Positions 9,012 to 37,810 of a stretch of 64,000 nucleotides of DNA are shown in pieces. The notes under the pieces are model-generated. The model searched no databases. It saw only the letters and a list, made by a program, of their open reading frames with translations, and had not been told where the DNA came from. The translations under genes were made by a program, and so were the position numbers. Origin of the DNA: Escherichia coli (lineage in GTDB: Bacteria; Pseudomonadota; Gammaproteobacteria; Enterobacterales; Enterobacteriaceae); the NCBI RefSeq assembly GCF_013315695.1, contig NZ_CP054356.1, one strand, 5' to 3'. How positions within the stretch are numbered: the first letter of the stretch is position 1; each line of letters starts with the position of its first letter.

Positions 9012-12000
9012 ATGCCCGTTGACTTTCTGACCACTGAGCAGACTGAAAGCTATGGCAGATTCACCGGTGAACCGGATGAGCTTCAGCTGGCACGATATTT
9101 TCACCTTGATGAAGCAGACAAGGAATTTATCGGAAAAAGCAGAGGTGATCACAACCGTCTGGGCATTGCCCTGCAAATTGGATGTGTCCGTTTTCTGGGC
9201 ACCTTCCTCACCGATATGAATCATATTCCTTCCGGCGTCCGGCATTTTACCGCCAGACAGCTCGGGATTCGTGATATCACCGTTCTTGCAGAATACGGTC
9301 AGAGGGAAAATACCCGCCGTGAGCATGCAGCGCTGATACGTCAGCACTATCAGTATCGTGAATTTGCCTGGCCCTGGACATTTCGCCTTACCCGTCTTTT
9401 ATATACCCGGAGCTGGATAAGCAACGAACGTCCTGGCCTGCTTTTCGATCTGGCGACAGGGTGGCTTATGCAACATCGTATTATTCTCCCCGGAGCCACT
9501 ACGCTGACCCGGTTGATTTCAGAGGTAAGGGAAAAGGCGACGTTGCGCCTGTGGAACAAACTGGCACTGATACCGTCAGCCGAACAGCGTTCACAGCTGG
9601 AGATGCTGCTGGGGCCAACTGATTGCAGCCGCCTGTCTTTACTGGAATCACTGAAAAAGGGCCCTGTGACCATCAGTGGTCCGGCGTTTAATGAAGCAAT
9701 TGAACGCTGGAAAACTCTGAACGATTTTGGCCTGCATGCTGAAAACCTGAGTACACTCCCGGCTGTGCGCCTGAAAAATCTCGCACGTTATGCTGGTATG
9801 ACTTCGGTGTTCAATATTGCCAGGATGTCACCGCAGAAAAGGATGGCGGTTCTGGTTGCCTTTGTCCTTGCATGGGAAACGCTGGCGCTGGATGATGCAT
9901 TGGACGTTCTGGACGCCATGCTGGCCGTTATCATCCGTGACGCCAGAAAGATTGGGCAGAAAAAACGGCTCCGCTCGCTGAAGGATCTGGATAAATCTGC
10001 ATTGGCGCTCGCCAGCGCATGTTCGTACCTGCTGAAAGAAGAAACACCGGACGAATCGATTCGTGCTGAGGTGTTCAGCTACATCCCAAGGCAAAAGCTG
10101 GCTGAAATCATCACGCTTGTCCGTGAAATTGCCCGGCCCTCAGACGATAATTTTCATGAAGAAATGGTGGAGCAGTACGGGCGCGTTCGTCGTTTCCTGC
10201 CCCATCTGCTGAATACCGTTAAATTTTCATCCGCACCTGCCGGGGTTACCACTCTGAATGCCTGTGACTACCTCAGCCGGGAGTTCAGCTCATGGCGGCA
10301 GTTTTTTGACGACGCACCAACGGAAATTATCAGTCGGTCATGGAAACGGCTGGTGATTAACAAGGAAAAACATATCACCCGCAGGGGATACACGCTCTGC
10401 TTTCTCAGTAAACTGCAGGATAGTCTGAGGCGGAGGGATGTCTACGTTACCGGCAGTAACCGGTGGGGAGATCCTCGTGCAAGATTACTACAGGGTGCTG
10501 ACTGGCAGGCAAACCGGATTAAGGTTTATCGTTCTTTGGGGCACCCGACAGACCCGCAGGAAGCAATAAAATCTCTGGGTCATCAGCTTGATAGTCGTTA
10601 CAGACAGGTTGCTGCACGTCTTTGCGAAAATGAGGCTGTCGAACTCGATGTTTCTGGCCCGAAGCCCCGGTTGACAATTTCTCCCCTCGCCAGTCTTGAT
10701 GAGCCGGACAGTCTGAAACGACTGAGCAAAATGATCAGTGATCTACTCCCTCCGGTGGATTTAACGGAGTTGCTGCTCGAAATTAACGCCCATACCGGAT
10801 TTGCTGATGAGTTTTTCCATGCTAGTGAAGCCAGTGCCAGAGTTGATGATCTGCCCGTCAGCATCAGCGCCGTGCTGATGGCTGAAGCCTGCAATATCGG
10901 TCTGGAACCACTGATCAGATCAAATGTTCCTGCACTGACCCGACACCGGCTGAACTGGACAAAAGCGAACTATCTGCGGGCTGAAACTATCACCAGCGCT
11001 AATGCCAGACTGGTTGATTTTCAGGCAACGCTGCCACTGGCACAGATATGGGGTGGAGGAGAAGTGGCATCTGCAGATGGAATGCGCTTTGTTACGCCAG
11101 TCAGAACAATCAATGCCGGACCGAACCGCAAATACTTTGGTAATAACAGAGGGATCACCTGGTACAACTTTGTGTCCGATCAGTATTCCGGCTTTCATGG
11201 CATCGTTATACCGGGGACGCTGAGGGACTCTATCTTTGTGCTGGAAGGTCTTCTGGAACAGGAGACCGGGCTGAATCCAACCGAAATTATGACCGATACA
11301 GCAGGTGCCAGCGAACTTGTCTTTGGCCTTTTCTGGCTGCTGGGATACCAGTTTTCTCCACGCCTGGCTGATGCCGGTGCTTCGGTTTTCTGGCGAATGG
11401 ACCATGATGCCGACTATGGCGTGCTGAATGATATTGCCAGAGGGCAATCAGATCCCCGAAAAATAGTCCTTCAGTGGGACGAAATGATCCGGACCGCTGG
11501 CTCCCTGAAGCTGGGCAAAGTACAGGTTTCAGTGCTGGTCCGTTCATTGCTGAAAAGTGAACGTCCTTCCGGACTGACTCAGGCAATCATTGAAGTGGGG
11601 CGCATCAACAAAACGCTGTATCTGCTTAATTATATTGATGATGAAGATTACCGCCGGCGCATTCTGACCCAGCTTAATCGGGGAGAAAGTCGCCATGCCG
11701 TTGCCAGAGCCATCTGTCACGGTCAAAAAGGTGAGATAAGAAAACGATATACCGACGGTCAGGAAGATCAACTGGGCACACTGGGGCTGGTCACTAACGC
11801 CGTCGTGTTATGGAACACTATTTATATGCAGGCAGCCCTGGATCATCTCCGGGCGCAGGGTGAAACACTGAATGATGAAGATATCGCACGCCTCTCCCCG
11901 CTTTGCCACGGACATATCAATATGCTCGGCCATTATTCCTTCACGCTGGCAGAACTGGTGACCAAAGGACATCTGAGACCATTAAAAGAGGCGTCAGAGG

Positions 12001-21867: not shown

Positions 21868-21915
21868 AGTATGACGGAGACGGGCGGGCAACCGCCCGTT
21901 TCTTTTCCGGTAAAG

Positions 21916-22230
21916 GATGTCGCCGTGCTCCTCTTTTTACTGCGCCGGCTGACGCGGCGCGGCATAAACGCTGCCTGTGGTCAGTGTCCCGCGTCCGGTG
22001 GGCACGGGACGGGCGCTTTTACCGCTCCCGGCTGGCGTCGGTGACAGTGTACGCCAGCCTGTCGCCCTTTTCTGATGAACGCCCTTCAAGCCGCTTTCGC
22101 GGCATAGCCTTGCCGTCAGAAAGACGACGGCTGCGGTATTCCACGGTCGGCCTGACCCGTTACCGGACGCGGTGAACAGCCCACAGGCAGCGGGGAACGG
22201 GCACCACAGGGGTGCCCTCCCGGTGCCCTC
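21916..22230. repeat. Leading-region repeat family R1, copy b
   Basis: See copy a; ends at the AAGGAG RBS of the methyltransferase gene. Confidence 0.5.
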
Positions 22231-22250
22231 TGTAAGAGAAGGAGTTTTGT

Positions 22251-22934
22251 ATGTCCCGTTTTGTCCTCGGTAACTGCATCGATGTTATGGCCCGTATTCC
22301 TGATAACGCCATTGATTTCATACTGACTGACCCGCCGTACCTCGTCGGTTTCCGTGACCGTTCCGGGCGCACCATTGCCGGTGATGTTAATGATGACTGG
22401 CTGCAACCTGCCAGCAATGAGATGTACCGCGTACTCAAAAAAGACGCGCTGATGGTCAGCTTCTACGGCTGGAACCGTGTCGATCGCTTTATGGCCGCCT
22501 GGAAACGCGCCGGATTCAGCGTGGCAGGGCACCTCGTGTTCACCAAAAACTACACATCCAAATCTGCGTATGTCGCGTACCGTCACGAATGCGCTTACAT
22601 CCTGGCAAAGGGCAGTCCGGCCCGGCCCCGTAACCCTCTGCCGGATGTGCTGGGCTGGAAATATTCAGGCAATCGTCATCACCCGACGGAAAAGCCCGTT
22701 ACCAGCCTGCAACCACTGATTGAGAGCTTCACACATCCGAACGCGATTGTGCTGGACCCGTTTGCAGGCAGCGGCTCAACCTGCGTCGCTGCCCTCCAGT
22801 CCGGACGCCGGTATATCGGTATCGAGCTGCTTGAACAGTATCACCGTGCCGGACAGCAACGACTGGCCGCCGTGCAACGGGCCATGCAGCAGGGGGCCGC
22901 GAATGATAACTGGTTTGAACCGGAGGCTGCGTAA
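22251..22934 (+). CDS. Orphan DNA N6-adenine methyltransferase (DPPY motif), 227 aa
   Basis: Motif ILTDPPYLVGF and a C-terminal DPFAGSGST SAM-binding motif (permuted order typical of beta-class N6/N4 MTases); no adjacent restriction endonuclease gene. Confidence 0.8.
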   Translation: MSRFVLGNCIDVMARIPDNAIDFILTDPPYLVGFRDRSGRTIAGDVNDDWLQPASNEMYRVLKKDALMVSFYGWNRVDRFMAAWKRAGFSVAGHLVFTKNYTSKSAYVAYRHECAYILAKGSPARPRNPLPDVLGWKYSGNRHHPTEKPVTSLQPLIESFTHPNAIVLDPFAGSGSTCVAALQSGRRYIGIELLEQYHRAGQQRLAAVQRAMQQGAANDNWFEPEAA

Positions 22935-24419: not shown

Positions 24420-24566
24420 TGACGCTGGCGGGGAAAAATCTCCGCCTTTTCCAGTCGGTCCCCGGAAAGAGCAAAAGGATGTCGCCGCAGGCTCCTCTTT
24501 ACCCGGCCATGTGGGGCATGGCCTTGTGGGTTTTCAGTTATGTGGCCTCAGCGTCGTGTGCGGGCT

Positions 24567-24792
24567 GTGCCGTGCCTCCATCGTAGCCGGGCTTCTGCGG
24601 GCGGGTTGCAAGGTAAGGTGAACCGCTGCGGTCACCCGGTCCCTCCTTCCCGTCTGCCGTGATTTTCCGGTCGTTCACCCGCTCAGATTTCGCGGTCTCA
24701 CCCTTCAACTCCCGTCAGCCGTGCGCGTCAGGCTGCGGCTTCCCTTGCGCCCTTGCAACCCTGCAGGCCCGGCAAAGATGGAGGCACGGCAC
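24567..24792. other. Long imperfect inverted repeat (about 45-bp arms at 24567-24612 and 24751-24792) upstream of klcA; candidate ssDNA hairpin (ssi/Frpo-like)
   Basis: Arm 1 gtgccgtgcctccatcgtagccgggcttctgcgggcgggttgcaagg and reverse complement of arm 2 gtgccgtgcctccatctttgccgggcctgcagggttgcaagg, read directly. Confidence 0.5.
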
Positions 24793-24834
24793 CGCCCGGT
24801 GTCGCGGAATATGTGAACAACGGAGGAAAACATC

Positions 24835-25260
24835 ATGCAATATGCGAAACCTGTCACTCTGAACGTTGAAGAGTGTGACCGTCTCTCCTTTCTGCCTTAC
24901 CTGTTTGGCAACGATTTTCTGTATGCCGAGGCGTATGTGTACGCGCTGGCGCAAAAAATGATGCCGGAATATCAGGGAGGCTTCTGGCATTTCATCCGCC
25001 TGCCGGACGGTGGCGGTTACATGATGCCGGATGGCGACCGTTTTCATCTGGTCAACGGTGAAAACTGGTTTGACCGCACTGTGAGTGCTGATGCCGCAGG
25101 TATCATCCTGACTTCCCTTGTGATTAACCGCCAGTTGTGGCTGTACCACGACAGCGGGGATGCGGGACTGACACACCTTTACCGGATGCGCGATGCGCAG
25201 TTGTGGAGCCACATCGAATTTCACCCCGAATGCAATGCGATTTACGCGGCACTTGACTGA
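24835..25260 (+). CDS. klcA: Antirestriction protein KlcA/ArdB family, 141 aa
   Basis: Translation [53 protein letters not shown]... matches recalled KlcA/ArdB proteins of F-like and IncP plasmids. Confidence 0.8.
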
Positions 25261-25917: not shown

Positions 25918-26109
25918 TACAGGGCAGGCGGTGGAGGCCGCCTGTCAGCCCGCGCGAAAACCCCTGGCAGGCTGGCGCCTGCCGGAAGGGAAGCGGGCCA
26001 CGCTGGCGCGTCGCCCGTTACCCTTCCCGTTTGTGATGTGTCCGGAATGTTTTTTCCTGATGTTATGTTTCTGTGGTTACTGTTCTTCTTCTTCCTCTTC
26101 TTTCCGTTC

Positions 26110-26650
26110 CTCTCCTGTTTATGCCTTTTCCGGGCGTCCCCCTGGCGGGGCGGGCTGTCGTGAACGGAGCCAGCGGAGCTGTCTCCGCCCTGGCGGGCTT
26201 CCATCCCTGACGCAAAACCCCGGGTTTGCAGCGACCGGAACGGTCGCGCCACCCCTGTCGCGCCGTGGCCTGCGCTCCCGGCATCCCGGCAAAAAGACGC
26301 CGGGATGTAAGGAGCAACGCCGTTTCGCAAACCGCGCTTCACGTCGTTGCAGCGGGTCCCTGCTCATTGCCTGCCGGGTGCCACACACCCGTATGAGTCC
26401 CTGTCGCCGGGGGCATAGACAGCCACAACCTGCCGCACTGACTGTCCAGGGTAAATGAACAGCCCACAAAATTTTTTACCTAAAACCCGGTAAAAAATTT
26501 TGCGTTCTGCCCAGGACAGGTGCGTCAGGCCGTGGCAGTGATGCCCCTTGCGGCGAAGGTTCTCAAACGGGTGAAGTTCATACCACAGGGAATACAGCAG
26601 CAGGTTCCCGCGAAACGTCAAAACCGCGGCTCCCGAAACTCAACGGGTGA
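26110..26650. repeat. Leading-region repeat family R2 (Frpo/ssi-like ssDNA promoter candidate), copy 1
   Basis: About 540 bp alignable to 29390-29935 and 34800-35370; shared core ggtaaatgaacagcccacaaaattttttacc.aaaacccggtaaaaaattttgcgttctgc...gtcaaaaccgcggctcccgaaactcaac; preceded by a TTC/CTC-rich simple tract. Confidence 0.5.
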
Positions 26651-26884
26651 TGTTCTTTAAAAATCAGGATTTATTTCAGGCTCCGGCAATACGCATTTAT
26701 GTGTTCTGTCAGTCATCCGGCTGGCAGGTAATGAAAACGCAGGAACAGAAGGAGGAAAACACCGGAAAGCGTCAGATGCAGATATGAAAAAAAGCAGGTC
26801 AGGGACCTGCTTAATCCACGCCGTAAGAATTGTGCGACCAATTTTGACGGCATTGTTAACCAATTTGTCATAAGGAATCCATTT

Positions 26885-27115
26885 ATGACTGTAAGCATTG
26901 TTTCACCTTCCGCAGCGGCTGTAAAGCCCCGCCGTCATCCCCGTTTCAGACGCGAAGACATCCCCGCGCCGGAACTTGACCCCGTGCTGAAAGCCTTCGG
27001 GCGACACATTGCCCGGAGTTTTCGCCGGGGGCGTGGTGTACACATCCCCGCCATGAAAAACACGGCCTTCGGGCAGGTGCTCCGCACACTCGAACTGAAA
27101 CGCGCTTTTAACTGA
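26885..27115 (+). CDS. Small basic hypothetical protein, 76 aa
   Basis: Arg-rich ORF downstream of R2 copy 1. Confidence 0.3.
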   Translation: MTVSIVSPSAAAVKPRRHPRFRREDIPAPELDPVLKAFGRHIARSFRRGRGVHIPAMKNTAFGQVLRTLELKRAFN

Positions 27116-27166
27116 TGAGGTGAGCCGCCCCGCGAGGGGCGGCAACAGACGGAAGGAGAACATTTT

Positions 27167-28528
27167 ATGACATTAGCAGCAATCACCATGACCGCCCCGG
27201 AAGCCGCCAGCCCTGTGCAGATGTACCGCGCGACCTACTCACCGGATGACAACAAACTGCGCCTGTATGCCGTGTCACGTCTTGACCCGGAGACGTATAA
27301 AAAAGTGCATGATGCCGGTTTTCGCTGGGCACCAGAACAGGCGCTGTTTGTGGCTCCAGCCTGGACACCGGGCCGGGAAGACGTGCTCCTCTCACTTGCC
27401 GGAGAGATTGAGGATGAAGACAGCACGCTCGCTGAACGTCAGGAAGCACGGGCGGAGCGGTTTACCGGATACAGCGGAAAGCGGGCCAGTGAATCCGCAC
27501 AGGCACTTGATGAAGTGGAAAGACTGGCCGCGATGATCCCGCCCGGTCAGCCCATTCTTGTGGGGCATCACAGCGAACGCCGCGCCCGTCGTGATGCGCA
27601 GCGTATTGAAAACGGCATGAAACGTGCCGTGATGCTCTTTGAACGTGCGGAATACTGGGAAGAACGTGCGCGGTCGGCACTGCTTCACGCGAAGTATAAA
27701 GAACGTCCGGACGTTCGCTGGCGTCGTATCAAAAAAATCGAAGCTGATTTGCGCAAGGCTGAAAAGACCATCGCACAGTCGCAGAAATATCTGACGATGT
27801 GGCGGGCTGAATCGCTGGATCTGAATATGGCAAAACTCATCAGCAGTCATGACCATATCAGCGCCTGTTTCCCGCTGGATACGTATCCGCGCCCGGCAGA
27901 AAAAAGCCAGTATGAAGGAAGTCGATCGTTATGGTCGGCCCTGGATGATGACATCATCACCACGGAGCAGGCCCGCGAAATTGCGATCCGCTGTCATGAA
28001 CGGCAGATTCAGCATCAGCAACGCTGGGTTAACCACTATCAGAACCGCCTGATCTATGAGCGTGCCATGCTGGACGAAAGCGGCGGCGTGGTTACCCGGA
28101 CACAGGATTTTGAGCCGGGCGGACAGGTTTTCAGCCGGGGCGAGTGGCTGACCATCATCCGCGTGAACAAAAGCAACGGGGCGGTGAGTTCAGTCACAAC
28201 GCCGAATTACAGTTTTCTCGGGTACAGCGGCACGATGAAAGTGACGCCCGATCGCATCACGGACTACAAAGCACCATCGGCAGAAGAGGCTGCCGTCGCC
28301 AGCCAGGCCGCGAAGCGTCCGCCGGTAGTCAACTATCCGGGGGAAGGTTTCCGGGAAATGACAAAGGCGCAGTGGGCCGCCCTGCCCCGGGACTGTAAGG
28401 CCGTGCGCAGTGTGGCAGAGACAGAAGACCACGGGGCATACCGCTACCGCCGCACAATGGACAATAATTTCCGCCTGGTGAATGTGTATATCACCGACAT
28501 GAAAATCACGGAAATCCCGCAGAAATAA
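27167..28528 (+). CDS. Conserved leading-region protein of unknown function, 453 aa
   Basis: Long uninterrupted ORF with a GGAGAA RBS; no catalytic motif recognised. Confidence 0.6.
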   Translation: MTLAAITMTAPEAASPVQMYRATYSPDDNKLRLYAVSRLDPETYKKVHDAGFRWAPEQALFVAPAWTPGREDVLLSLAGEIEDEDSTLAERQEARAERFTGYSGKRASESAQALDEVERLAAMIPPGQPILVGHHSERRARRDAQRIENGMKRAVMLFERAEYWEERARSALLHAKYKERPDVRWRRIKKIEADLRKAEKTIAQSQKYLTMWRAESLDLNMAKLISSHDHISACFPLDTYPRPAEKSQYEGSRSLWSALDDDIITTEQAREIAIRCHERQIQHQQRWVNHYQNRLIYERAMLDESGGVVTRTQDFEPGGQVFSRGEWLTIIRVNKSNGAVSSVTTPNYSFLGYSGTMKVTPDRITDYKAPSAEEAAVASQAAKRPPVVNYPGEGFREMTKAQWAALPRDCKAVRSVAETEDHGAYRYRRTMDNNFRLVNVYITDMKITEIPQK

Positions 28529-28574
28529 GGTATATCCCCCCGGGAAATCCCCGGGGGATGACGGAGATAATGAT

Positions 28575-29138
28575 ATGCACAGTCAGTTAAAAGAACGTAT
28601 CCGGCTGATGCGCGCAAGGCTGGATAACGCCGCGCCGGTTGCTGAAATCCGGGCTGAATCTCAGCTTTTTGTGACTCCTGCCCCGGTCTGTGATCGCCTG
28701 GTGACGCTGGCGGAGATCAGCAACCGTGATCACATTCTGGAACCCTCTGCCGGCACCGGGGCCATACTGCGGGCGATTCGTCATGTCGCGCCGGGGGCCA
28801 TGTGTGATGCGGTGGAGATTAACAGCGGGCTGGTCCGGTATCTGCGGGATAATTTTAACGGTGTCAGGGTTCAGTGTGGCGACTTCATGGAATGGCAGCC
28901 GGTGCAGTATTACAGCCGGATTATCATGAATCCGCCGTTCAGTCACGGGCAGGATATCCGGCATATCCTGCGGGCTTTTTCCCTGTTGCGTCCGGGTGGT
29001 GTGCTGGTTGCCGTCTGTCTGAACGGGCCGCGCCAGCAGGAGAAGCTGTTACCGTTTTCTGATGTCCGCGAGGTGCTGCCGTGCGGCACATTTGCTTATA
29101 CCCGTGTTCCGACGATGATTATTCGTCTGCGTGCCTGA
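28575..29138 (+). CDS. SAM-dependent methyltransferase (NPPF motif), 187 aa; second orphan MTase
   Basis: GTG-containing SAM-binding region LEPSAGTGAIL and motif IV IIMNPPFS, typical of N6-adenine/N-methyltransferases. Confidence 0.7.
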   Translation: MHSQLKERIRLMRARLDNAAPVAEIRAESQLFVTPAPVCDRLVTLAEISNRDHILEPSAGTGAILRAIRHVAPGAMCDAVEINSGLVRYLRDNFNGVRVQCGDFMEWQPVQYYSRIIMNPPFSHGQDIRHILRAFSLLRPGGVLVAVCLNGPRQQEKLLPFSDVREVLPCGTFAYTRVPTMIIRLRA

Positions 29139-29389
29139 TGACTCCGGGCAGGCGGGAGGATAAATGCCCGTCTGCCCGCGCCGGGAAAAGACCGCGCGCC
29201 GGTGGCGCTGAAAGGGGCCGCGCTTACGCGCCGCCCCTTTCATTACGCGGACGTTCTGCTGTGGGCTTCTGTCTTTTCAGACCTGTCATTTGCCTGTTAC
29301 TGATGATGTTGTTGTTCCTGCTACTGCTACTGCTACTGCTACTGCTACTGTTCTTCTTTTTTCTGCTGCTCTGATTACTGTCTGTTTTG

Positions 29390-29935
29390 TTGTTCTCCTG
29401 CTTATGCCTTTTCCGGGCGTCCCCCTGGCGGGGCGGGCTGTCGTGAACGGAGCCAGCGGAGCTGTCTCCGCCCTGGCGGGCTTCCATCCCTGACGCAAAA
29501 ACCCGGGTTTGCAGCGACCGGAACGGTCGCGCCACCCTTGTCGCGCCGTGGCCTGCGCTCCCGGCATCCCGGCAAAAGACGCCGGGATGTAAGGAGCAAC
29601 GCTGTTTCGCAAACCGCGCTTCACGTCGTTGCGGCGGGTCCCTGCCCGTTGTTCTGTCCGGTGCCATTCACCTGTTTAAGCCCCTGTCGCCGGGGGCTGA
29701 TACAGCCACAACCTGCCGCACTGACTGTCCAGGGTAAATGAACAGCCCACAAAATTTTTTACCCAAAACCCGGTAAAAAATTTTGCGTTCTGCCCAGGAC
29801 AGGTGCGTCAGGCCGTGGCAGTGATGCCCCATGCGGCGAAGGTTCTCAAACAGGTGATGGTGAATACCGGAGGGAACAAAAGGCAGGTCCCCGCAAAACG
29901 TCAAAACCGCGGCTCCCGAAACTCAACAGATGATG
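29390..29935. repeat. Leading-region repeat family R2 (Frpo/ssi-like), copy 2, directly upstream of ssb; preceded by a (CTGCTA)5 microsatellite at 29318-29350
   Basis: See copy 1; microsatellite read directly. Confidence 0.5.
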
Positions 29936-29968
29936 GGGGCTGAAAACATCAACAGAAGGAGACACATC

Positions 29969-30496
29969 ATGGCAGTTCGTGGCATTAACAAGGTCATTCT
30001 TGTCGGTCGTCTGGGAAAAGATCCGGAAGTCCGTTACATCCCCAACGGGGGCGCAGTGGCAAACCTGCAGGTGGCCACGTCAGAAACCTGGCGCGACAAA
30101 CAGACGGGGGAAATGAAGGAGCAGACGGAATGGCACCGCGTGGTGCTGTTCGGCAAGCTCGCGGAAGTGGCAGGTGAATATCTGCGTAAGGGGGCGCAGG
30201 TCTACATTGAAGGCCAGCTTCGCACCCGTAGCTGGGAAGATAACGGTATTACCCGTTACGTCACCGAAATCCTTGTTAAAACCACGGGCACCATGCAGAT
30301 GCTGGGGAGTGCACCACAGCAGAACGCTCAGGTGCAACCGCAGCCTCAGCAGAATGGTCAGTCACAGAGTGCTGACGCGACGAAAAAAGGGAGCGCGAAA
30401 ACGAAAGGCCGTGGACGTAAGGCTGCGCAGCCGGAGCCTCAGCCGCAACCACCGGAGGGGGAGGATTACGGGTTTTCAGACGATATCCCGTTCTGA
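29969..30496 (+). CDS. ssb: Plasmid single-stranded DNA-binding protein SSB, 175 aa
   Basis: Translation [48 protein letters not shown]... with the C-terminal acidic tail DDIPF. Confidence 0.92.
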
Positions 30497-30514
30497 CTGG
30501 CCTGACTGTGATAA

Positions 30515-30787
<273 letters not shown>

Positions 30788-30847
30788 GAGAGGTGCCGGA
30801 CGGGGATCACGTCCGGCAGACATTAACTACACAATAAGGGGATAGTC

Positions 30848-32812
30848 ATGTCAGTAACAAAGTCTGAACCAAAATCTACCCGTAAAGCAAGCCGTAAACC
30901 TGCAAAAACGCAGGAAACTGTCCTGTCTGCCCTGCTGGCGCAGACGGAGGAAGTGAGCGTGCCGCTGGCCTCGCTGATTAAGTCACCACTGAATGTGCGC
31001 ACGGTGCCGTATTCTGCGGAGTCCGTCAGCGAACTGGCTGATTCCATTAAGGGGGTCGGCCTGCTGCAGAATCTGGTTGTTCATGCCCTGCCAGGTGACC
31101 GCCACGGTGTCGCCGCAGGTGGTCGCCGACTGGCAGCACTCAACATGCTGGCAGAGCGTGGCATCATTCCGGCTGACTGGCCTGTCCGCGTGAAAATTAT
31201 TCCGCAGGAACTGGCGACGGCCGCATCGATGACCGAGAACGGTCATCGTCGGGATATGCACCCAGCCGAACAGATTGCCGGATTCTGTGCAATGGCGCAG
31301 GAAGGCAAAACACCTGCACAAATCGGTGATTTGCTGGGCTATTCACCCCGCCACGTTCAGCGAATGCTGAAACTGGCTGACCTTGCGCCTGTCATCCTCG
31401 ATGCGCTGGCAGAAGACCTCATCACCACCGAGCACTGTCAGGCGCTGGCGCTGGAGAACGACACCGCGCGTCAGGTGCAGGTGTTTGAAGCCGCCTGTCA
31501 GTCGGGATGGGGCGGTAAACCGGAAGTACAGACCATTCGTCGTCTGGTGACCGAAAGTGAAGTGGCGGTGGCAGGGAACAGTAAATTCCGCTTCGTGGGG
31601 GCTGATGCCTTCTCGCCAGATGAACTGCGCACTGACCTGTTCAGCGACGACGAGGGTGGCTATGTGGACTGCGTGGCGCTCGATGCCGCCCTGCTGGAAA
31701 AACTCCAGGCTGTTGCTGAACACCTTCGGGAAGCCGAAGGCTGGGGATGGTGCGCCGGACGCATGGAGCCTGTCGGTGAGTGCCGTGAGGATGCCGGAAC
31801 ATACCGCTGTCTGCCGGAGCCGGAAGCGGTGCTGACGGAGGCGGAAGAAGAACGTCTGAACGAACTGATGACGCGTTACGACGCGCTGGAAAACCAGTGT
31901 GAGGAATCTGACCTGCTGGAAGCAGAAATGAAGCTGATGCGCTGCATGGCGAAGGTCAGGGCGTGGACGCCGGAGATGCGTGCCGGAAGCGGTGTGGTGG
32001 TGTCCTGGCGTTATGGCAACGTGTGTGTCCAGCGTGGTGTGCAGTTGCGCAGCGAGGATGATGCGGCTGACGACGCTGACCGCACGGAACAGGTGCAGGA
32101 GAAAGCGCCCGTGGAGGAAATCAGTCTGCCACTGCTGACGAAAATGTCTTCCGAACGCACGCTGGCAGTCCAGGCAGCACTGATGCAGCAACCGGACAAA
32201 TCCCTGGCACTGCTGGCATGGACGCTCTGCCTGAATGTGTTTGGCAGCGGAGCGTACAGTAAACCAGCACAAATCAGCCTGGAATGTAAACATTATTCGC
32301 TGACCAGCGATGCGCCATCGGGGAAGGACGGTGCCGCATTCCTGGCGCTGATGGCAGAAAAAGCCCGTCTTGCAGCCCTGTTACCGGAGGGATGGTCACG
32401 GGATATGACGACGTTCCTGTCACTCAGCCAGGAGGTACTGTTATCCCTGCTCAGTTTCTGCACCGCGTGCAGCATCCACGGCGTTCAGACCCGCGAGCAT
32501 GGTCACACGTCACGCAGTCCGCTGGACTCGCTGGAGAGCGCTATCGGATTCCACATGCGCGACTGGTGGCAGCCGACGAAAGCAAACTTCTTCGGACACC
32601 TGCAAAAGCCGCAGATTATCGATGCCCTGAATGATGCCGGACTGTCCGGTGCTGCGCGGGACGCGGAGAAAATGAAGAAAGGCGATGCCGCTGAACATGC
32701 AGAGTTCCACATGAAAGACAACCGCTGGGTGCCTGGCTGGATGTGTACACCACGTCCACAGGCAGAGACGGAAACCACGGAGTACCGTGACGACCAGGCA
32801 GAAGCCGCCTGA
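30848..32812 (+). CDS. ParB-like nuclease-domain protein of the leading region, 654 aa
   Basis: N-terminal ParB/Srx-like region (...[30 protein letters not shown]...) and large acidic C-terminal extension; position between ssb and psiB as in F-like plasmids. Confidence 0.7.
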
Positions 32813-32880
32813 CCGCCAGTCATAAACCATTTATCACGCCGCCCTGCCGGAGACGGGGCGGCAGCAAGGGAGATACCGTG

Positions 32881-33315
32881 ATGAAAACTGAACTGACCCT
32901 GAATGTATTACAGACCATGAGCGCACAGGAATATGAAGATATCCGGGCTGCCGGAAGTGATGAACGTCGTGAACTCACACATGCCGTGATGCGGGAGCTG
33001 GATGCGCCGGATAACTGGACGATGAACGGCGAGTATGGCAGCGAGTTCGGCGGCTTTTTCCCCGTCCAGGTCCGTTTCACGCCTGCCCACGAACGTTTTC
33101 ACCTGGCGTTATGTTCACCGGGCGATGTCTCTCAGGTCTGGGTGCTGGTTCTGGTGAATGCCGGTGGTGAGCCGTTTGCGGTGGTTCAGGTACAGCGGCG
33201 GTTTGCACCGGAAGCCGTCAGCCATTCACTGGCACTGGCGGCGTCACTGGACGCGCAGGGGTACAGCGTCAGTGACATCATCCATATCCTGATGGCGGAA
33301 GGAGGTCAGGCATGA
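32881..33315 (+). CDS. psiB: Plasmid SOS inhibition protein PsiB, 144 aa
   Basis: Translation [46 protein letters not shown]... matches the recalled F PsiB. Confidence 0.9.
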
Positions 33316-34031
33316 GCGCACGTTCACAGGCACTGGTTCCCCTCAGCGCAGAGCAACAGGCCGCATGGCGGGCGGTGGCGGAGACAGAAAAACGCCGCCA
33401 CCAGGGAAACACGCTGGCGGAATATCCGTATGCGGGGGCGTTTTTCCGCTGTCTGAACGGAAGCCGCAGGATATCGCTGTCTGACCTGCGATTTTTCATG
33501 CCGTCCCTGACCGCAGAAGAACTGCGCGGCAACCGTTCTCAGTGGCTGTATGCCGTCGATGTGCTGATTGAAACTCAGGGCGAGGTCTGCCTTCTTCCCC
33601 TTCCCGGCGATGCAGCAGAGCGGCTGTTCCCGTCGGTGCGGTTCCGTGTCAGGGAGCGCAGTCGCCACAAATCCGCACTGGTCATGCAAAAGTACAGCCG
33701 CCAGCAGGCGAGGGAGGCAGAGCAGAAAGCCCGTGCGTACCAGGCGCTGGTCGCTCAGGCTGAAATCGAACTGGCATTCCATTCGCCGGAAACAGTCGGA
33801 AGCTGGCATGCCCGCTGGAGTGACCGGGTGGCAGAGCATGACCTGGAAACCCTGTTCTGGCAGTGGGGTGAGCGTTTTCCGTCACTGGCCGGAATGGAAC
33901 GCTGGCAGTGGCAGGATATGCCGTTCTGGCAGGTTATTGCGGAAGCCAGTCTTGCAGCAAGAGAGGCCGGTCACGCTGTCCGTGAGATGGAGCGGTGGAT
34001 GGTGCCGAACAAACTCCGGGAGGCGGCGTGA
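33312..34031 (+). CDS. psiA: Plasmid SOS inhibition protein PsiA, 239 aa
   Basis: Overlaps the psiB stop (ATGA); translation [32 protein letters not shown]... matches recalled PsiA. Confidence 0.88.
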
Positions 34032-34194
34032 TGCGGCAACAATCGCACAGATTACCCGTAAACAGCCTGAATGAGCGGGTTATTTTCAGGAAAAGTGAGT
34101 GTGGTCAGCGTGCAGGTATATGGGCTATGATGTGCCCGGCGCTTGAGGCTTTCTGCCTCATGACGTGAAGGTGGTTTGTTACCGTGTTGTGTGG

Positions 34195-34265
34195 CAGAAA
34201 GAAGATAGCCCCGTAGTAAGTTAATTTTCATTAACCACCACGAGGCATCCCTATGTCTAGTCCAC
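34195..34265 (-). ncRNA. sok: Putative Sok antisense RNA of the hok/sok (flm) locus; coordinates approximate
   Basis: Inferred from the position complementary to the hok/mok mRNA leader; ends not mapped. Confidence 0.3.
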
Positions 34266-34465
34266 ATCAGGATAGCCTCTTACCGCGCTTTGCGCAAGGA
34301 GAAGAAGGCCATGAAACTACCACGAAGTTCCCTTGTCTGGTGTGTGTTGATCGTGTGTCTCACACTGTTGATATTCACTTATCTGACACGAAAATCGCTG
34401 TGCGAGATTCGTTACAGAGACGGACACAGGGAGGTGGCGGCTTTCATGGCTTACGAATCCGGTAA
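34253..34465 (+). CDS. mok: Mok (modulator of killing) overlapping reading frame, 70 aa
   Basis: Translation [52 protein letters not shown]... overlapping hok in another frame. Confidence 0.6.
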
Positions 34466-34469
34466 GTAG
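34311..34469 (+). CDS. hok: Hok/FlmA post-segregational killing toxin, 52 aa
   Basis: Hand translation [52 protein letters not shown] matches recalled Hok; the downstream fold-back region ...cttttcagggctgatgctggtctgactgc... is present. Confidence 0.85.
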
Positions 34470-34799
34470 CAACCTGGAGGCGGGCGCAGGCCCGCCTTTT
34501 CAGGGCTGATGCTGGTCTGACTGCACTGAAGCGCCTTTATAAAGGGGCTGCTGGTTCGCCGGTGGCCCCTTTCTCCTTGCTGGCATTGTACGGGCATGAA
34601 CAACCAGACTGCCAGGAAGGCCGTTTCCCTCCGGGAACGGGGATGAACGTGCGCCTGCGGCGCCCGTTCTTTTCCCCCGCCTTCTCTGTTTATGACTTAC
34701 CAGAAATCACATCACCTTCCCTTTGATTATTCTCTTTTTCCTCCTGCTCTGACTCTGATTACTGCTCTGACTCTGATTACTGCTGCCCTGATTATTGTC

Positions 34800-35370
34800 T
34801 GTTTTGTTGTTCTCCTGCTTATGCCTTTTCCGGGCGTCCCCCTGGCGGGGCGGGCTGTCGTGAACGGAGCCAGCGAAGCTGTCTCCGCCCTGGCGGGCTT
34901 CCATCCCTGACGCAAAACCCCCGGCTTGCAGCGACTGTTCCGGTCGCGCCGCCTCTGTCGCGCCGTGGCCTGCGCTCCTGGCATCCCGGCAAAAGGCCGC
35001 CGGGATGTAAGGCGCAACGCCGTTTCGCAAACCGCGCTTCACGTCGTTGCGGCGGGTCCCTGCCCGTTGTTGTGTCCGGTGCCATTCACCTGTTTAAGCC
35101 CTGTCGCCGGGGCTGATAGTTGATACAACCTGCCGCACTGACTGTCCGGTAAAATGAACAGCCCACAAAATTTTTTACCCAAAACCCGGTAAAAATTTTG
35201 CGTTCTGCTCCAGACAGGTGCGTCAGGCCGTGGCAGGTGATGCCCCTGCGGCGAAGGTTCTCAAACAGGTGATGGTGAATACCGGAGGAACAAAAGGCAG
35301 GTCCCCGCAAAACGTCAAAACCGCGGCTCCCGAAACTCAACAGATGATGGGGGCTGAAAACATCAGATAC
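34800..35370. repeat. Leading-region repeat family R2 (Frpo/ssi-like), copy 3; preceded by a tandem 18-bp unit (ctgactctgattactgct x2) at 34748-34783
   Basis: See copy 1; ends at the RBS (caggagga) of the ORF at 35381. Confidence 0.5.
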
Positions 35371-35380
35371 AGGAGGAATT

Positions 35381-35677
35381 ATGAGCGCATTTTCTTTTAA
35401 CACCACTTATCAGCCAACAGGCGATCAGCAGAAAGACGCAATCGCACAAATCGGGATCATGCAGAATCGTGCTGTTCAGGCAAATCTTGCATATCAGAGC
35501 TGCCGGGATTCTGGTGCACTCTTTAAGGTGCTCCACCAGGTCAATAATGAGCTGCATGACTTACTGGATAGCCTGGAGAATCATACTCCTCTTGTCAGAA
35601 AAAACGCTGATGAGTTGATCGCGCTGTTACTGCTTTTCACTCGGCAGGTTGGTCAGTCCCGAACTGACCTGATTTGA
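35381..35677 (+). CDS. Hypothetical protein, 98 aa; first ORF downstream of the oriT-proximal R2 copy
   Basis: Strong RBS AGGAGGA 7 nt upstream of the ATG; no recognised motif. Confidence 0.5.
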   Translation: MSAFSFNTTYQPTGDQQKDAIAQIGIMQNRAVQANLAYQSCRDSGALFKVLHQVNNELHDLLDSLENHTPLVRKNADELIALLLLFTRQVGQSRTDLI

Positions 35678-35787
35678 TGGTCCTTCCCCTCGGAATTGTT
35701 GTCTTTTTGTTAACGATAACCGAGGGGGGATGATATTAAGCGAAAAAACTTTTATTAATTTTATGCCTTCATAAAGGAGTTACTGTT

Positions 35788-36609
35788 ATGCGATTAGCTT
35801 CCCGTTTTGGTCGATATAATTCTATTCGCCGTGAGCGCCCGTTAACGGATGACGAATTAATGCAGTTTGTTCCATCTGTCTTTTCTGGTGATAAACATGA
35901 ATCCCGGAGTGAGCGTTATACATATATCCCAACCATCAATATCATCAATAAGTTACGTGATGAAGGTTTCCAGCCATTCTTTGCCTGTCAGAGTCGGGTT
36001 CGTGATTTGGGACGCCGCGAATACAGTAAACATATGTTACGTCTTCGCAGGGAAGGGCATATTAACGGGAAAGAAGTTCCTGAAATTATCCTGCTTAATT
36101 CACATGATGGTTCATCCAGTTATCAGATGATCCCAGGAATTTTTCGTTTTGTCTGCACAAATGGCCTGGTGTGTGGGAATAATTTTGGCGAAATCCGCGT
36201 TCCACATAAAGGTGATATTGTCGGGCAGGTTATTGAGGGAGCGTATGAAGTGCTCGGTGTCTTTGATAAAGTCACTGAAAATATGGAGACAATGAAAGAG
36301 ATACATCTTAACAGTGACGAACAACATTTATTTGGCAGAGCTGCATTGATGGCCAGGTACGAAGATGAAAATAAAACGCCAGTGACGCCAGAACAAATAA
36401 TTACTCCCCGCCGTTGGGAGGATAAACAGAACGATCTCTGGACAACCTGGCAGCGGGTTCAGGAGAATATGATAAAAGGTGGATTATCGGGGCGAAGTGC
36501 CTCCGGTAAAAATACCAGAACAAGAGCCATTACAGGCATTGACGGTGATATCCGAATCAACAAAGCATTATGGATGATTGCCGAACAGTTCAGGGAGTGG
36601 AAGTCATGA
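35788..36609 (+). CDS. Conserved leading-region protein (orf273/YubP-like), 273 aa
   Basis: Size and position match the 273-aa ORF found between hok and gene X in F-like plasmids; assignment by synteny and recall. Confidence 0.55.
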   Translation: MRLASRFGRYNSIRRERPLTDDELMQFVPSVFSGDKHESRSERYTYIPTINIINKLRDEGFQPFFACQSRVRDLGRREYSKHMLRLRREGHINGKEVPEIILLNSHDGSSSYQMIPGIFRFVCTNGLVCGNNFGEIRVPHKGDIVGQVIEGAYEVLGVFDKVTENMETMKEIHLNSDEQHLFGRAALMARYEDENKTPVTPEQIITPRRWEDKQNDLWTTWQRVQENMIKGGLSGRSASGKNTRTRAITGIDGDIRINKALWMIAEQFREWKS

Positions 36610-36905
36610 TAATATAAGTAAAGCCCCGAAAAATTTTTCGGGGCTTTACTTATATTATCATCCTGCGGCATTGCTGTGTCGTCTGATATGCCTCAATTTC
36701 ATCAACTGGCTTTTCGGTAGTCTGTAAATATTGTGCCCGCGAAAAATGGTCTGGCAGGAGGCTGCACAGTTACCGGATATATATAAGATGGGATCCCGCT
36801 TTGCGGGGCTTCGGCCAGTCAGCATTATCACTCATATGATATTTTTGTGTGTGGCCTTCCATGCCGCTGTCGCGGCATAACCGGTATTTGACAATGTATA
36901 CAATA

Positions 36906-37415
36906 TTAATTTTTCTGCACACTGTTAATTTGGGAAAGTGATTTCTTCGTGGTCGGAACCCGGATGCCTTTACTGCTCTTTATCCAGGTATAAATCCGGT
37001 AAACCTCTGATGCGTAGGCAAGACGTCTCTGGTTCTGGCGTTCGGTCTTCCTGAATCCGGCATTGTATGCACCAACGGCCTCCCAGGAGACGCCCCATTT
37101 TTTAAAGGCTATTGCCAGATAATAAGCACCGGTATAAATGTTCATGCAGGGATCTGTTGTCAGATGTTCCGGCTTAATTCCATAGCGGGCCAGTTCGTTA
37201 AAATGCTGGGAATCTACCTGCATCAGTCCGCTGCCATATCCCGTTACCGGATTAATACCGATGGCATTAACCCGGTAACGGGATTCTTTCCATGATATCG
37301 CTCTCAGTAAATCCGGGTCTATTTTGTAATCCCGACCTGCAAGATCAAAGCAATCGGCGGCTTCGCAGATCCCATTTATAAACATCAGGCAGATTGCTAA
37401 CATCCATTTTTTCAT
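36906..37415 (-). CDS. Lytic transglycosylase (gene X / orf169 / P19 family), 169 aa
   Basis: Signal peptide, then the lytic transglycosylase catalytic region ...[32 protein letters not shown]... (catalytic Glu in the WKES motif) and AYNAG motif. Confidence 0.85.
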
Positions 37416-37439: not shown

Positions 37440-37810
37440 CGTAAATAATTTAACCTACTCCACAAAAAGGCTCAACAGGTTGGTGGTTCTCACCACCAAA
37501 AGCACCACACCCCACGCAAAAACAATTTTTTGCTGATTTTTCTTTATAAATAGAGTGTTATGAAAAATTAGTTTCTCTTACTCTCTTTATGATATTTAAA
37601 AAAGCGGTGTCGGCGCGGCTACAACAACGCGCCGACACCGCTTTGTAGGGGTGGTACTGACTATTTTTATAAAAAACATCATTTTATATTAGGGGCGCTG
37701 CTAGCGGCGCGGTGTGTTTTTTTATAGGATACCGCTAGGGGCGCTGCTAGCGGTGCGTCCCTGTTTGTATTATGAATTTTAGTGTTCCGAAATTAACTTT
37801 ATTTTATGTT
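37440..37810. other. oriT: oriT (origin of transfer): F-type nic sequence on the minus strand (GGGGTGT^GGTGCT, nick between 37507 and 37506), with TraM-binding repeats near traM
   Basis: Reverse complement of 37490-37520 reads gcgtggggtgtggtgcttttggtggtgag, the recalled F/R100 nic region; ctagcggcgcg/cgctaggggcgctgctagcgg repeats upstream of traM resemble sbm sites. Transfer would proceed from 37506 toward lower coordinates, so the leading region enters first. Confidence 0.8.

Follow-up and report, generated by a model that had tools for sequence, protein, structure and literature searches.

The leading region of Escherichia coli contig NZ_CP054356.1 (assembly GCF_013315695.1), an IncF-type conjugative plasmid, contains three direct repeats of about 600 bp, each of which is in all likelihood a class-1 single-stranded DNA (ssDNA) promoter cassette of the Frpo/ssi family. 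The repeats lie within the 64,000-nt stretch analysed here, hereafter the window, and each consists of three parts, a simple-sequence tract, an extension, and a hairpin. A repeat search and MAFFT alignment place copy A at 26071-26668, copy B at 29354-29951, and copy C at 34771-35365. Copies A and C have 92.9% and 93.9% identity to copy B, respectively (blastn), and the mean column identity of the three is 89% (MAFFT), a combination of length and similarity that makes a chance origin impossible. A sequence-only reading of the window had described three hairpin-rich repeats of about 540 to 600 bp, each headed by a different simple-sequence tract. The repeats were recovered with slightly wider spans, a different tract was found by Tandem Repeats Finder at the head of each where that reading had put it, and the minus strand of every copy folds more strongly than shuffled sequence. 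The hairpins are as follows.

Hairpin A, 26322..26641, minus strand: class-1 homologue, 80% identical to F ssiD; fold z = -11.3.
Hairpin B, 29604..29924, minus strand: counterpart of F Frpo2 (ssp1b), upstream of ssb; fold z = -9.4.
Hairpin C, 35022..35338, minus strand: counterpart by position of F Frpo1/ssiD (ssp1a), nearest the origin of transfer (oriT); fold z = -6.5.

Homology to published sequences places the three repeats in the class-1 ssDNA promoter family. The F ssiD/Frpo sequence (D90178, taken from Supplementary file 4 of Samuel et al. 2024) matches the minus strand of the window over about 350 nt in each copy, with 87% identity in copy B (29590-29939), 84% in copy C (35008-35353), and 80% in copy A (26308-26641). 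A fragment of F Frpo2, which drove anti-CRISPR expression from the transferred strand (Samuel et al. 2024), is 98% identical to copy B, 92% to copy C, and 91% to copy A, and the central cores of ssi2 and ssi3 of ColIb-P9 match the copies at 74% to 80% (all by blastn). The Frpo/ssi-type identity that had been suggested from the letters of the window alone is thus borne out. Judged by their places in the region, copies B and C are the equivalents of Frpo2/ssp1b and Frpo1/ssp1a, respectively. The other single-strand initiation signal known from the F leading region, ssiE, had no blastn match to any of the three repeats; a 91% match to it is present on the minus strand at 36723-36911, between the DUF932 and transglycosylase genes near oriT.

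The identity of repeats of this kind is already known, as Frpo1/2, ssi1-3, and a mass annotation of such elements have been published. The annotation includes 13,089 Frpo homologues across 6,006 elements (PMC11541004), and at least one Frpo homologue has been reported in 74% of plasmids with psiB. Transcript starts of ssi1-3 have been mapped by 5' rapid amplification of cDNA ends, and three promoter classes have been defined (PMC12672017). Induction in the recipient and use of ssDNA by RNA polymerase have been reported for F Frpo1/2 and pESBL ssi1-3, and copy-dependent protein synthesis before the DNA becomes double-stranded has already been reported for F. Transcripts from ssp1 also help prime complementary-strand synthesis (bioRxiv 10.64898/2026.01.09.698686).

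Folding of the minus strand predicts a conserved, imperfect hairpin of about 320 nt in each copy. The alignment comprised 11 diverse homologues: the window hairpins (A-like, B, and C), the F elements ssiD and Frpo2, three variants from metagenomes or plasmids, and, out of Samuel's table, one Serratia candidate and two from insect metagenomes. The RNAalifold consensus of these is a single long hairpin with 99 pairs, on which 95.3% of cells are paired, compared with 42% to 49% when the partners are slid by one to three columns. Compensatory changes occur at 14 pairs, compared with 2 to 7 in the slid controls, and 14 was reached in 1 of 500 shuffles, so that a conserved hairpin on the transferred strand, which the earlier reading had made a test of its proposal, is recovered. 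On either strand of duplex copy B (29300-29990), no sigma-70-type site was found, at the level of sequence only, as expected of a promoter that is active only as ssDNA.

The assignment of the minus strand as the transferred strand depends on the nic site, which lies between the transglycosylase gene and traM, with traM, traJ, and FinP just downstream.

oriT nic-site motif GTGTGGTGCTTT, 37499..37510, minus strand: single exact occurrence.

We take this motif to be the F/R100 TraI nic-site sequence of the transferred strand. From the 5' end made at the nic site, the strand runs into the leading region. The minus strand is thus the one transferred, in agreement with the earlier reading, and serves as template for the plus-strand genes of the leading region. 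All of the leading-region genes are on the plus strand, and the three copies lie 2 to 11 kb from the nick on the leading side.

The gene order was taken from the annotation of a near-identical plasmid. On the plus strand, a DNA methylase gene, several small genes, an antirestriction gene, and a DUF1380 gene precede copy A. Between copies A and B are a 76-aa open reading frame (ORF), a DUF3560 gene, and a methyltransferase gene, and copy B is followed by ssb, a DUF905 gene, a parB-like gene, psiB, psiA, and hok/sok. Copy C is followed by a 98-aa ORF and a DUF945/932 gene, beyond which are a transglycosylase gene (minus strand) and then traM and traJ. The genes behind each copy are listed here.

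Copy A operon, 26885..29138, plus strand: 76-aa ORF (26885-27115), DUF3560 (27167-28528), and methyltransferase (28575-29138).
ssb, 29969..30496, plus strand: NCBIfam NF010292, 386 bits; heads the ssb/DUF905/parB-like/psiB/psiA operon.
Copy C genes, 35381..36609, plus strand: 98-aa ORF (35381-35677), then the DUF932 protein.

The copies had been described as lying directly upstream of plus-strand genes. This is the case for ssb, whose true start is at about 29969, and for the 98-aa ORF; in copy A a gap of 217 nt separates the end of the repeat from the start of the 76-aa ORF. The 76-aa ORF is basic, and the methyltransferase belongs to the class I S-adenosylmethionine-dependent type. The DUF932 protein and its F counterpart at the ygeB position are 97% identical. 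No Pfam or NCBIfam family matches the 98-aa ORF, and no similarity was detected between it and the 95-aa gene that F has in this place (the ygeA position), a pattern suggestive of a cassette swap immediately behind the promoter. Deletion of the 95-aa gene strongly reduces F transfer. An Rfam scan at the gathering threshold identified FinP and the traJ 5' untranslated region at 38.3 kb, sok at 34.1 kb, AS-pc01, and AS-traG, and no family for the repeats. The AS-pc01 match (26789-26890, minus strand, 79.4 bits, at the gathering threshold) is located in the 217-nt gap, and its 5' end overlaps the first codons of the 76-aa ORF; AS-pc01 is an antisense RNA reported from plasmid pHK01.

During conjugation, the minus strand would enter the recipient led by the 5' end at the nick (about 37.5 kb), and before its complement is made, about 320 nt of each copy would fold back into a long imperfect hairpin. 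Host RNA polymerase, on the strength of the literature rather than of this window, would read the hairpin as a promoter and transcribe toward the 5' end of the transferred strand, which is left to right in the window. The mRNA from copy A would then cover the 76-aa/DUF3560/methyltransferase operon, that from copy B ssb through psiA, and that from copy C the 98-aa and DUF932 genes. As suggested by published work, the same transcripts may prime complementary-strand synthesis, and once the DNA is duplex the hairpin would no longer form and the promoters would be off. The role of RNA polymerase, the induction, and the priming are those described for F and pESBL, and they would apply to the copy A operon by analogy; we infer that copy A is active. 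Promoters of the Frpo type explain how conjugative resistance plasmids come to express SOS inhibitors, SSB, and anti-restriction or other anti-defence functions within minutes of their entry, before the double-stranded state is reached, and this picture of plasmid establishment is unchanged by the results presented here.

Several observations weigh against this assignment or leave part of the repeats outside it. The extension of about 200 nt in each repeat is unexplained by a promoter model, the AS-pc01 match stands between the end of copy A and its first ORF, and copy C, with the weakest fold, has several changes in its core helix. Further, a weight-matrix scan of the transferred strand gave three weak candidate arrangements of -35 and -10 elements, and none of them is conserved across F-type, IncI-type, Serratia, and insect-metagenome elements. 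In the first arrangement, the 3' arm, read from loop to base, has an A/T-rich UP-like tract, TTGTGG, 17 nt, and GACAGT. The second is a conserved unpaired 8-nt bulge, TTCATTTA, for which the matching stretch is TGCATTTC in ssiD and TATATCTT in ssi2. The third, on the 5' arm, combines an invariant TTGAGA with CATCAC(T) in an internal loop 17 to 18 nt away; the fragment shown to work by Samuel lacks the TTGAGA partner, which counts against it. The top weight-matrix score in ssiD (10.1, for TTGAGA, 17 nt, CATACT) was rejected, as it depends on a base absent from the printed D90178; the complete F sequence reads CATCACT, the same as all other copies.

Among other explanations for the repeats, the one that they are chiefly single-strand initiation signals for priming, and not promoters for expression, has a basis in the history of ssiD, which was first isolated as a priming signal, and in the transcription-dependent early conversion seen at ssp1a and ssp1b (bioRxiv 10.64898/2026.01.09.698686; review PMC7690428). 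However, priming and promoter roles are compatible rather than mutually exclusive, and the copies lie 5' of operons in the correct orientation (copy A with its 217-nt gap), which makes an exclusively priming role highly improbable. Somewhat less remote, but still very unlikely, is that at least one copy, A or C in particular, is an inactive duplicate that persists only as a leftover or a recombination substrate. Related contigs with hairpin deletions and copies broken by insertion sequence (IS) elements or an intron would fit such decay, as would the weak fold of copy C and the absence of the copy A operon from F. Yet copy A retains a complete hairpin with the best fold of the three, most of the sequence running from copy A to within the DUF3560 gene is present in at least 3,287 PLSDB records, and the two arms of the hairpin core are nearly always of the same allele.

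A function in double-stranded DNA, as terminators, insulators, or protein-binding sites between established operons, would account for the placement of the repeats exactly between operons and for the high sequence conservation of the extension. We give it very little credence, given the direct homology to an experimentally defined ssDNA promoter; moreover, the plus-strand RNA of the tract and extension folds no better than shuffles of it do (z = -1.0), and the terminator search found one terminator-like site, which is within chance expectation. Neither a terminator nor a structured RNA on the plus strand is supported. The least probable of the explanations considered is that the tract and extension encode a small protein read through on the plus or minus strand. 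Open frames do cross the tracts on both strands of all copies, hypothetical proteins are predicted there by PGAP in some plasmids, and the tract alleles, bar one, differ by multiples of three. But substitutions in the extension have no three-base periodicity (0.038/0.038/0.031), the start codon and ribosome-binding site are unconserved, with an upstream ATG only at position C, the frames differ between copies, and a 1-nt indel between copies falls within the minus-strand frames. One 35-nt tract allele also breaks the frame. With no conserved start, ribosome-binding site, or codon periodicity, the multiples of three are read as the result of repeat units of 3, 6, and 18 nt, which yield them anyway, and a coding function was rejected. 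A mobile element (a miniature inverted-repeat transposable element, or MITE, or an IS) was also rejected, since the copies keep the same syntenic place across thousands of plasmids; where IS elements or an intron occur, in some plasmids, they are insertions into the repeats.

The ssDNA promoter assignment concerns the hairpin; the tract and the extension lie 3' of it on the transferred strand. The tracts are located as follows (Tandem Repeats Finder).

Tract A, 26083..26118, plus strand: TTC/CTC-rich, with (TTC)6.7 at 26083-26102.
Tract B, 29318..29401, plus strand: (CTGCTA)5.5 at 29318-29350, then T/C-rich.
Tract C, 34744..34818, plus strand: 2.3 copies of the 18-mer CTGCTCTGACTCTGATTA at 34744-34784, then T/C-rich.

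On the plus strand, the tract regions are 72% to 77% pyrimidine (77% in the wider tract A region, 26040-26118), so the transferred strand is purine-rich there and does not pair with itself. Tract alleles came from nine plasmid loci and from 120 contigs retrieved from metagenomes by a 27-mer that lies at the start of the extension. A 39-mer scan of genome contigs gave four short contigs that are probably contaminants and were not used for tract statistics. In tract B, the number of CTGCTA units ranges broadly from 1 to 10, with a peak at 5 (58 related sequences), and tract A has 14 length alleles of 17 to 74 nt among 27 related sequences. The 18-mer of tract C occurs once in 33 and twice in 36 related sequences. 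Even a plasmid that is 99.7% identical across the 9.4-kb segment has (CTGCTA)6, one hexamer different from the window. All of these alleles differ by multiples of three, the 35-nt allele being the single exception. The earlier reading had supposed that the tracts could vary by slippage; such variation is real and fast, and invariant lengths are refuted.

The same reading had also suggested that tract length could change element spacing or strength. The tract is about 200 nt past the hairpin, on the far side of the extension from the genes, so its length cannot change the distance between promoter and gene, and any effect of tract length would need to act on the 3' end of the upstream operon or upstream of the promoter on the template. 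On the promoter reading, the tracts are spacers prone to slippage that occupy the far end (3' on the transferred strand) of each cassette. No paper on the CTGCTA hexamer array was found in the searchable literature, and the same is true of the tract polymorphism, the conserved extension, and recombination between copies; the residual novelty is small. The polymorphic flanking tracts could serve for typing or for tests of insulation effects.

Between each tract and hairpin is an extension of about 200 nt, which is outside the published 351-nt ssiD.

Extension A, 26119..26321, minus strand: GC-rich, with three small hairpins; distal part 26119-26214, proximal part 26215-26321.
Extension B, 29402..29603, minus strand: conserved module of about 200 nt.
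Extension C, 34819..35021, minus strand: conserved module of about 200 nt.

This is the most conserved part of the repeat, with a per-column variability of 0.01 to 0.05 compared with 0.09 to 0.20 in the hairpin (109 unique related sequences), although its first 27 nt served as the search anchor. The most conserved part of the repeat is thus not within the published element. As ssDNA of the transferred strand, the extension of copy B has a moderate fold (z = -3.3). The extension seems to be modular, as its distal 100 nt or so has an unrelated alternative version in many plasmids. In the related plasmids L006 and L008, for example, unrelated GC-rich sequence takes the place of the distal extension and tract (at ~10520-10850, equivalent to window 25990-26214); by eye, it resembles the sequence with which the Salmonella and insect-metagenome candidates of Samuel end on their 3' side. 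The extension and the polymorphic tract, purine-rich and unstructured on the transferred strand, might together form a functional module, for example by pausing complementary-strand synthesis or by marking the edge of the SSB coat immediately upstream of the hairpin, and so set the single-stranded lifetime of the promoter, with (CTGCTA)1-10 as a tuning knob for expression. We regard this as unlikely; if true, tract length would tune early gene expression across hosts in a rapidly mutable way.

The 600-bp copies probably also act as sites of homologous recombination at which operon cassettes are added, deleted, or swapped. The F plasmid has only two copies, and its Frpo2 combines the tract and left part of type A with the right part of type B, the change of type falling within the hairpin; in sequence, Frpo2 is a chimera of copies A and B. 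The 76-aa/DUF3560/methyltransferase operon is missing from F, which is consistent with a crossover between copies A and B, and a reverse insertion gives the same picture. Copies acting as crossover points would explain the absence of this operon from F. In our contig set, upstream tract types and downstream genes occur in many combinations, and the arms of the central core are matched alleles, of window type or ssiD type, in all but one mixed case. Recombination between Frpo1 and Frpo2 in F was anticipated in the literature, and for an IncI plasmid that lacks the 9.7-kb region between repeats, the authors inferred insertion via crossover between repeats (PMC3817090).

Related contigs contain further rearrangements of the repeats. 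In the natural hybrids L078 and L118, the tract and extension are of F type, as is the flank before them (a methyltransferase 3' end or the hok side), and the ssi hairpin and ssb to which they are joined are of IncI type. This indicates recombination between the leading regions of IncF and IncI plasmids within the extension that both share. A group II intron (L007, 8103-9770) and the elements IS679 and ISEc12 (L008, 14035-16623; L006, 14529-16831) are in or beside repeats of related plasmids, and the intron junction at about window position 26214 is recurrent in many Klebsiella plasmids. Metagenome contigs L012 and L131, and L039, L076, and L092, have deletion variants of the copies. Some have lost the entire hairpin, with short CGGGA repeats at the ends of the deletion, and others lack some 70 nt (about 70 nt) of the outer 5' arm, bounded by two similar CATCA(C/T)C..GTT(T)GAG motifs; both kinds of deletion look like slipped-mispairing losses of a palindrome.

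Compared with known systems, copy B resembles F Frpo2 (ssp1b) in its position just 5' of ssb, its strand, and its hairpin, and differs in that the F element is a chimera and that F lacks an operon of the copy A type between its copies. Copy C is in the same place as F Frpo1 (ssiD, ssp1a), which is upstream of ygeA/ygeB; each is nearest oriT and precedes the DUF932 gene. However, the core of copy C is the window-type and not the ssiD-type allele, with both arms changed together, and the first gene behind it is unrelated. The ssi1-3 elements of ColIb-P9/IncI1, three dispersed 328-bp repeats, are likewise present in three copies that each head a leading-region operon. In addition to the central core, they share the start of the extension with the window copies, whereas their outer hairpin arms cannot be aligned with the F type. 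Class 2 (ssp2, before klcA/ardB) and class 3 (ssp3, before a DNA methylase) elements follow the same logic of a long transferred-strand hairpin 5' of an operon, but have no sequence similarity to the three copies. In contrast to ssp1, which primes complementary-strand synthesis, ssp2 has been reported to block it (bioRxiv 10.64898/2026.01.09.698686).

The window represents the common IncF layout, with three class-1 copies and, in addition, hairpins that are likely of classes 2 and 3. In PLSDB, at least 5,000 records matched 26040-35400 by megablast, at least 1,641 of which cover 80% or more of the segment; among the matches listed, these are chiefly from Escherichia, Klebsiella, and Salmonella. 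A long transferred-strand hairpin at 24475-24805 (minus strand, z = -5.05) with 32-nt inverted-repeat arms (24561-24592 and 24767-24798) precedes a klcA/ardB-type gene (24835-25260) and is 78% identical to the candidate Frpo'4 of Samuel; this is probably a class-2 ssDNA promoter (ssp2). Another long minus-strand hairpin, at ~21900-22250 (z = -6.43), precedes the DNA methylase gene at 22251-22934 (NCBIfam PRK13699, 489 bits) and is probably a class-3 ssDNA promoter.

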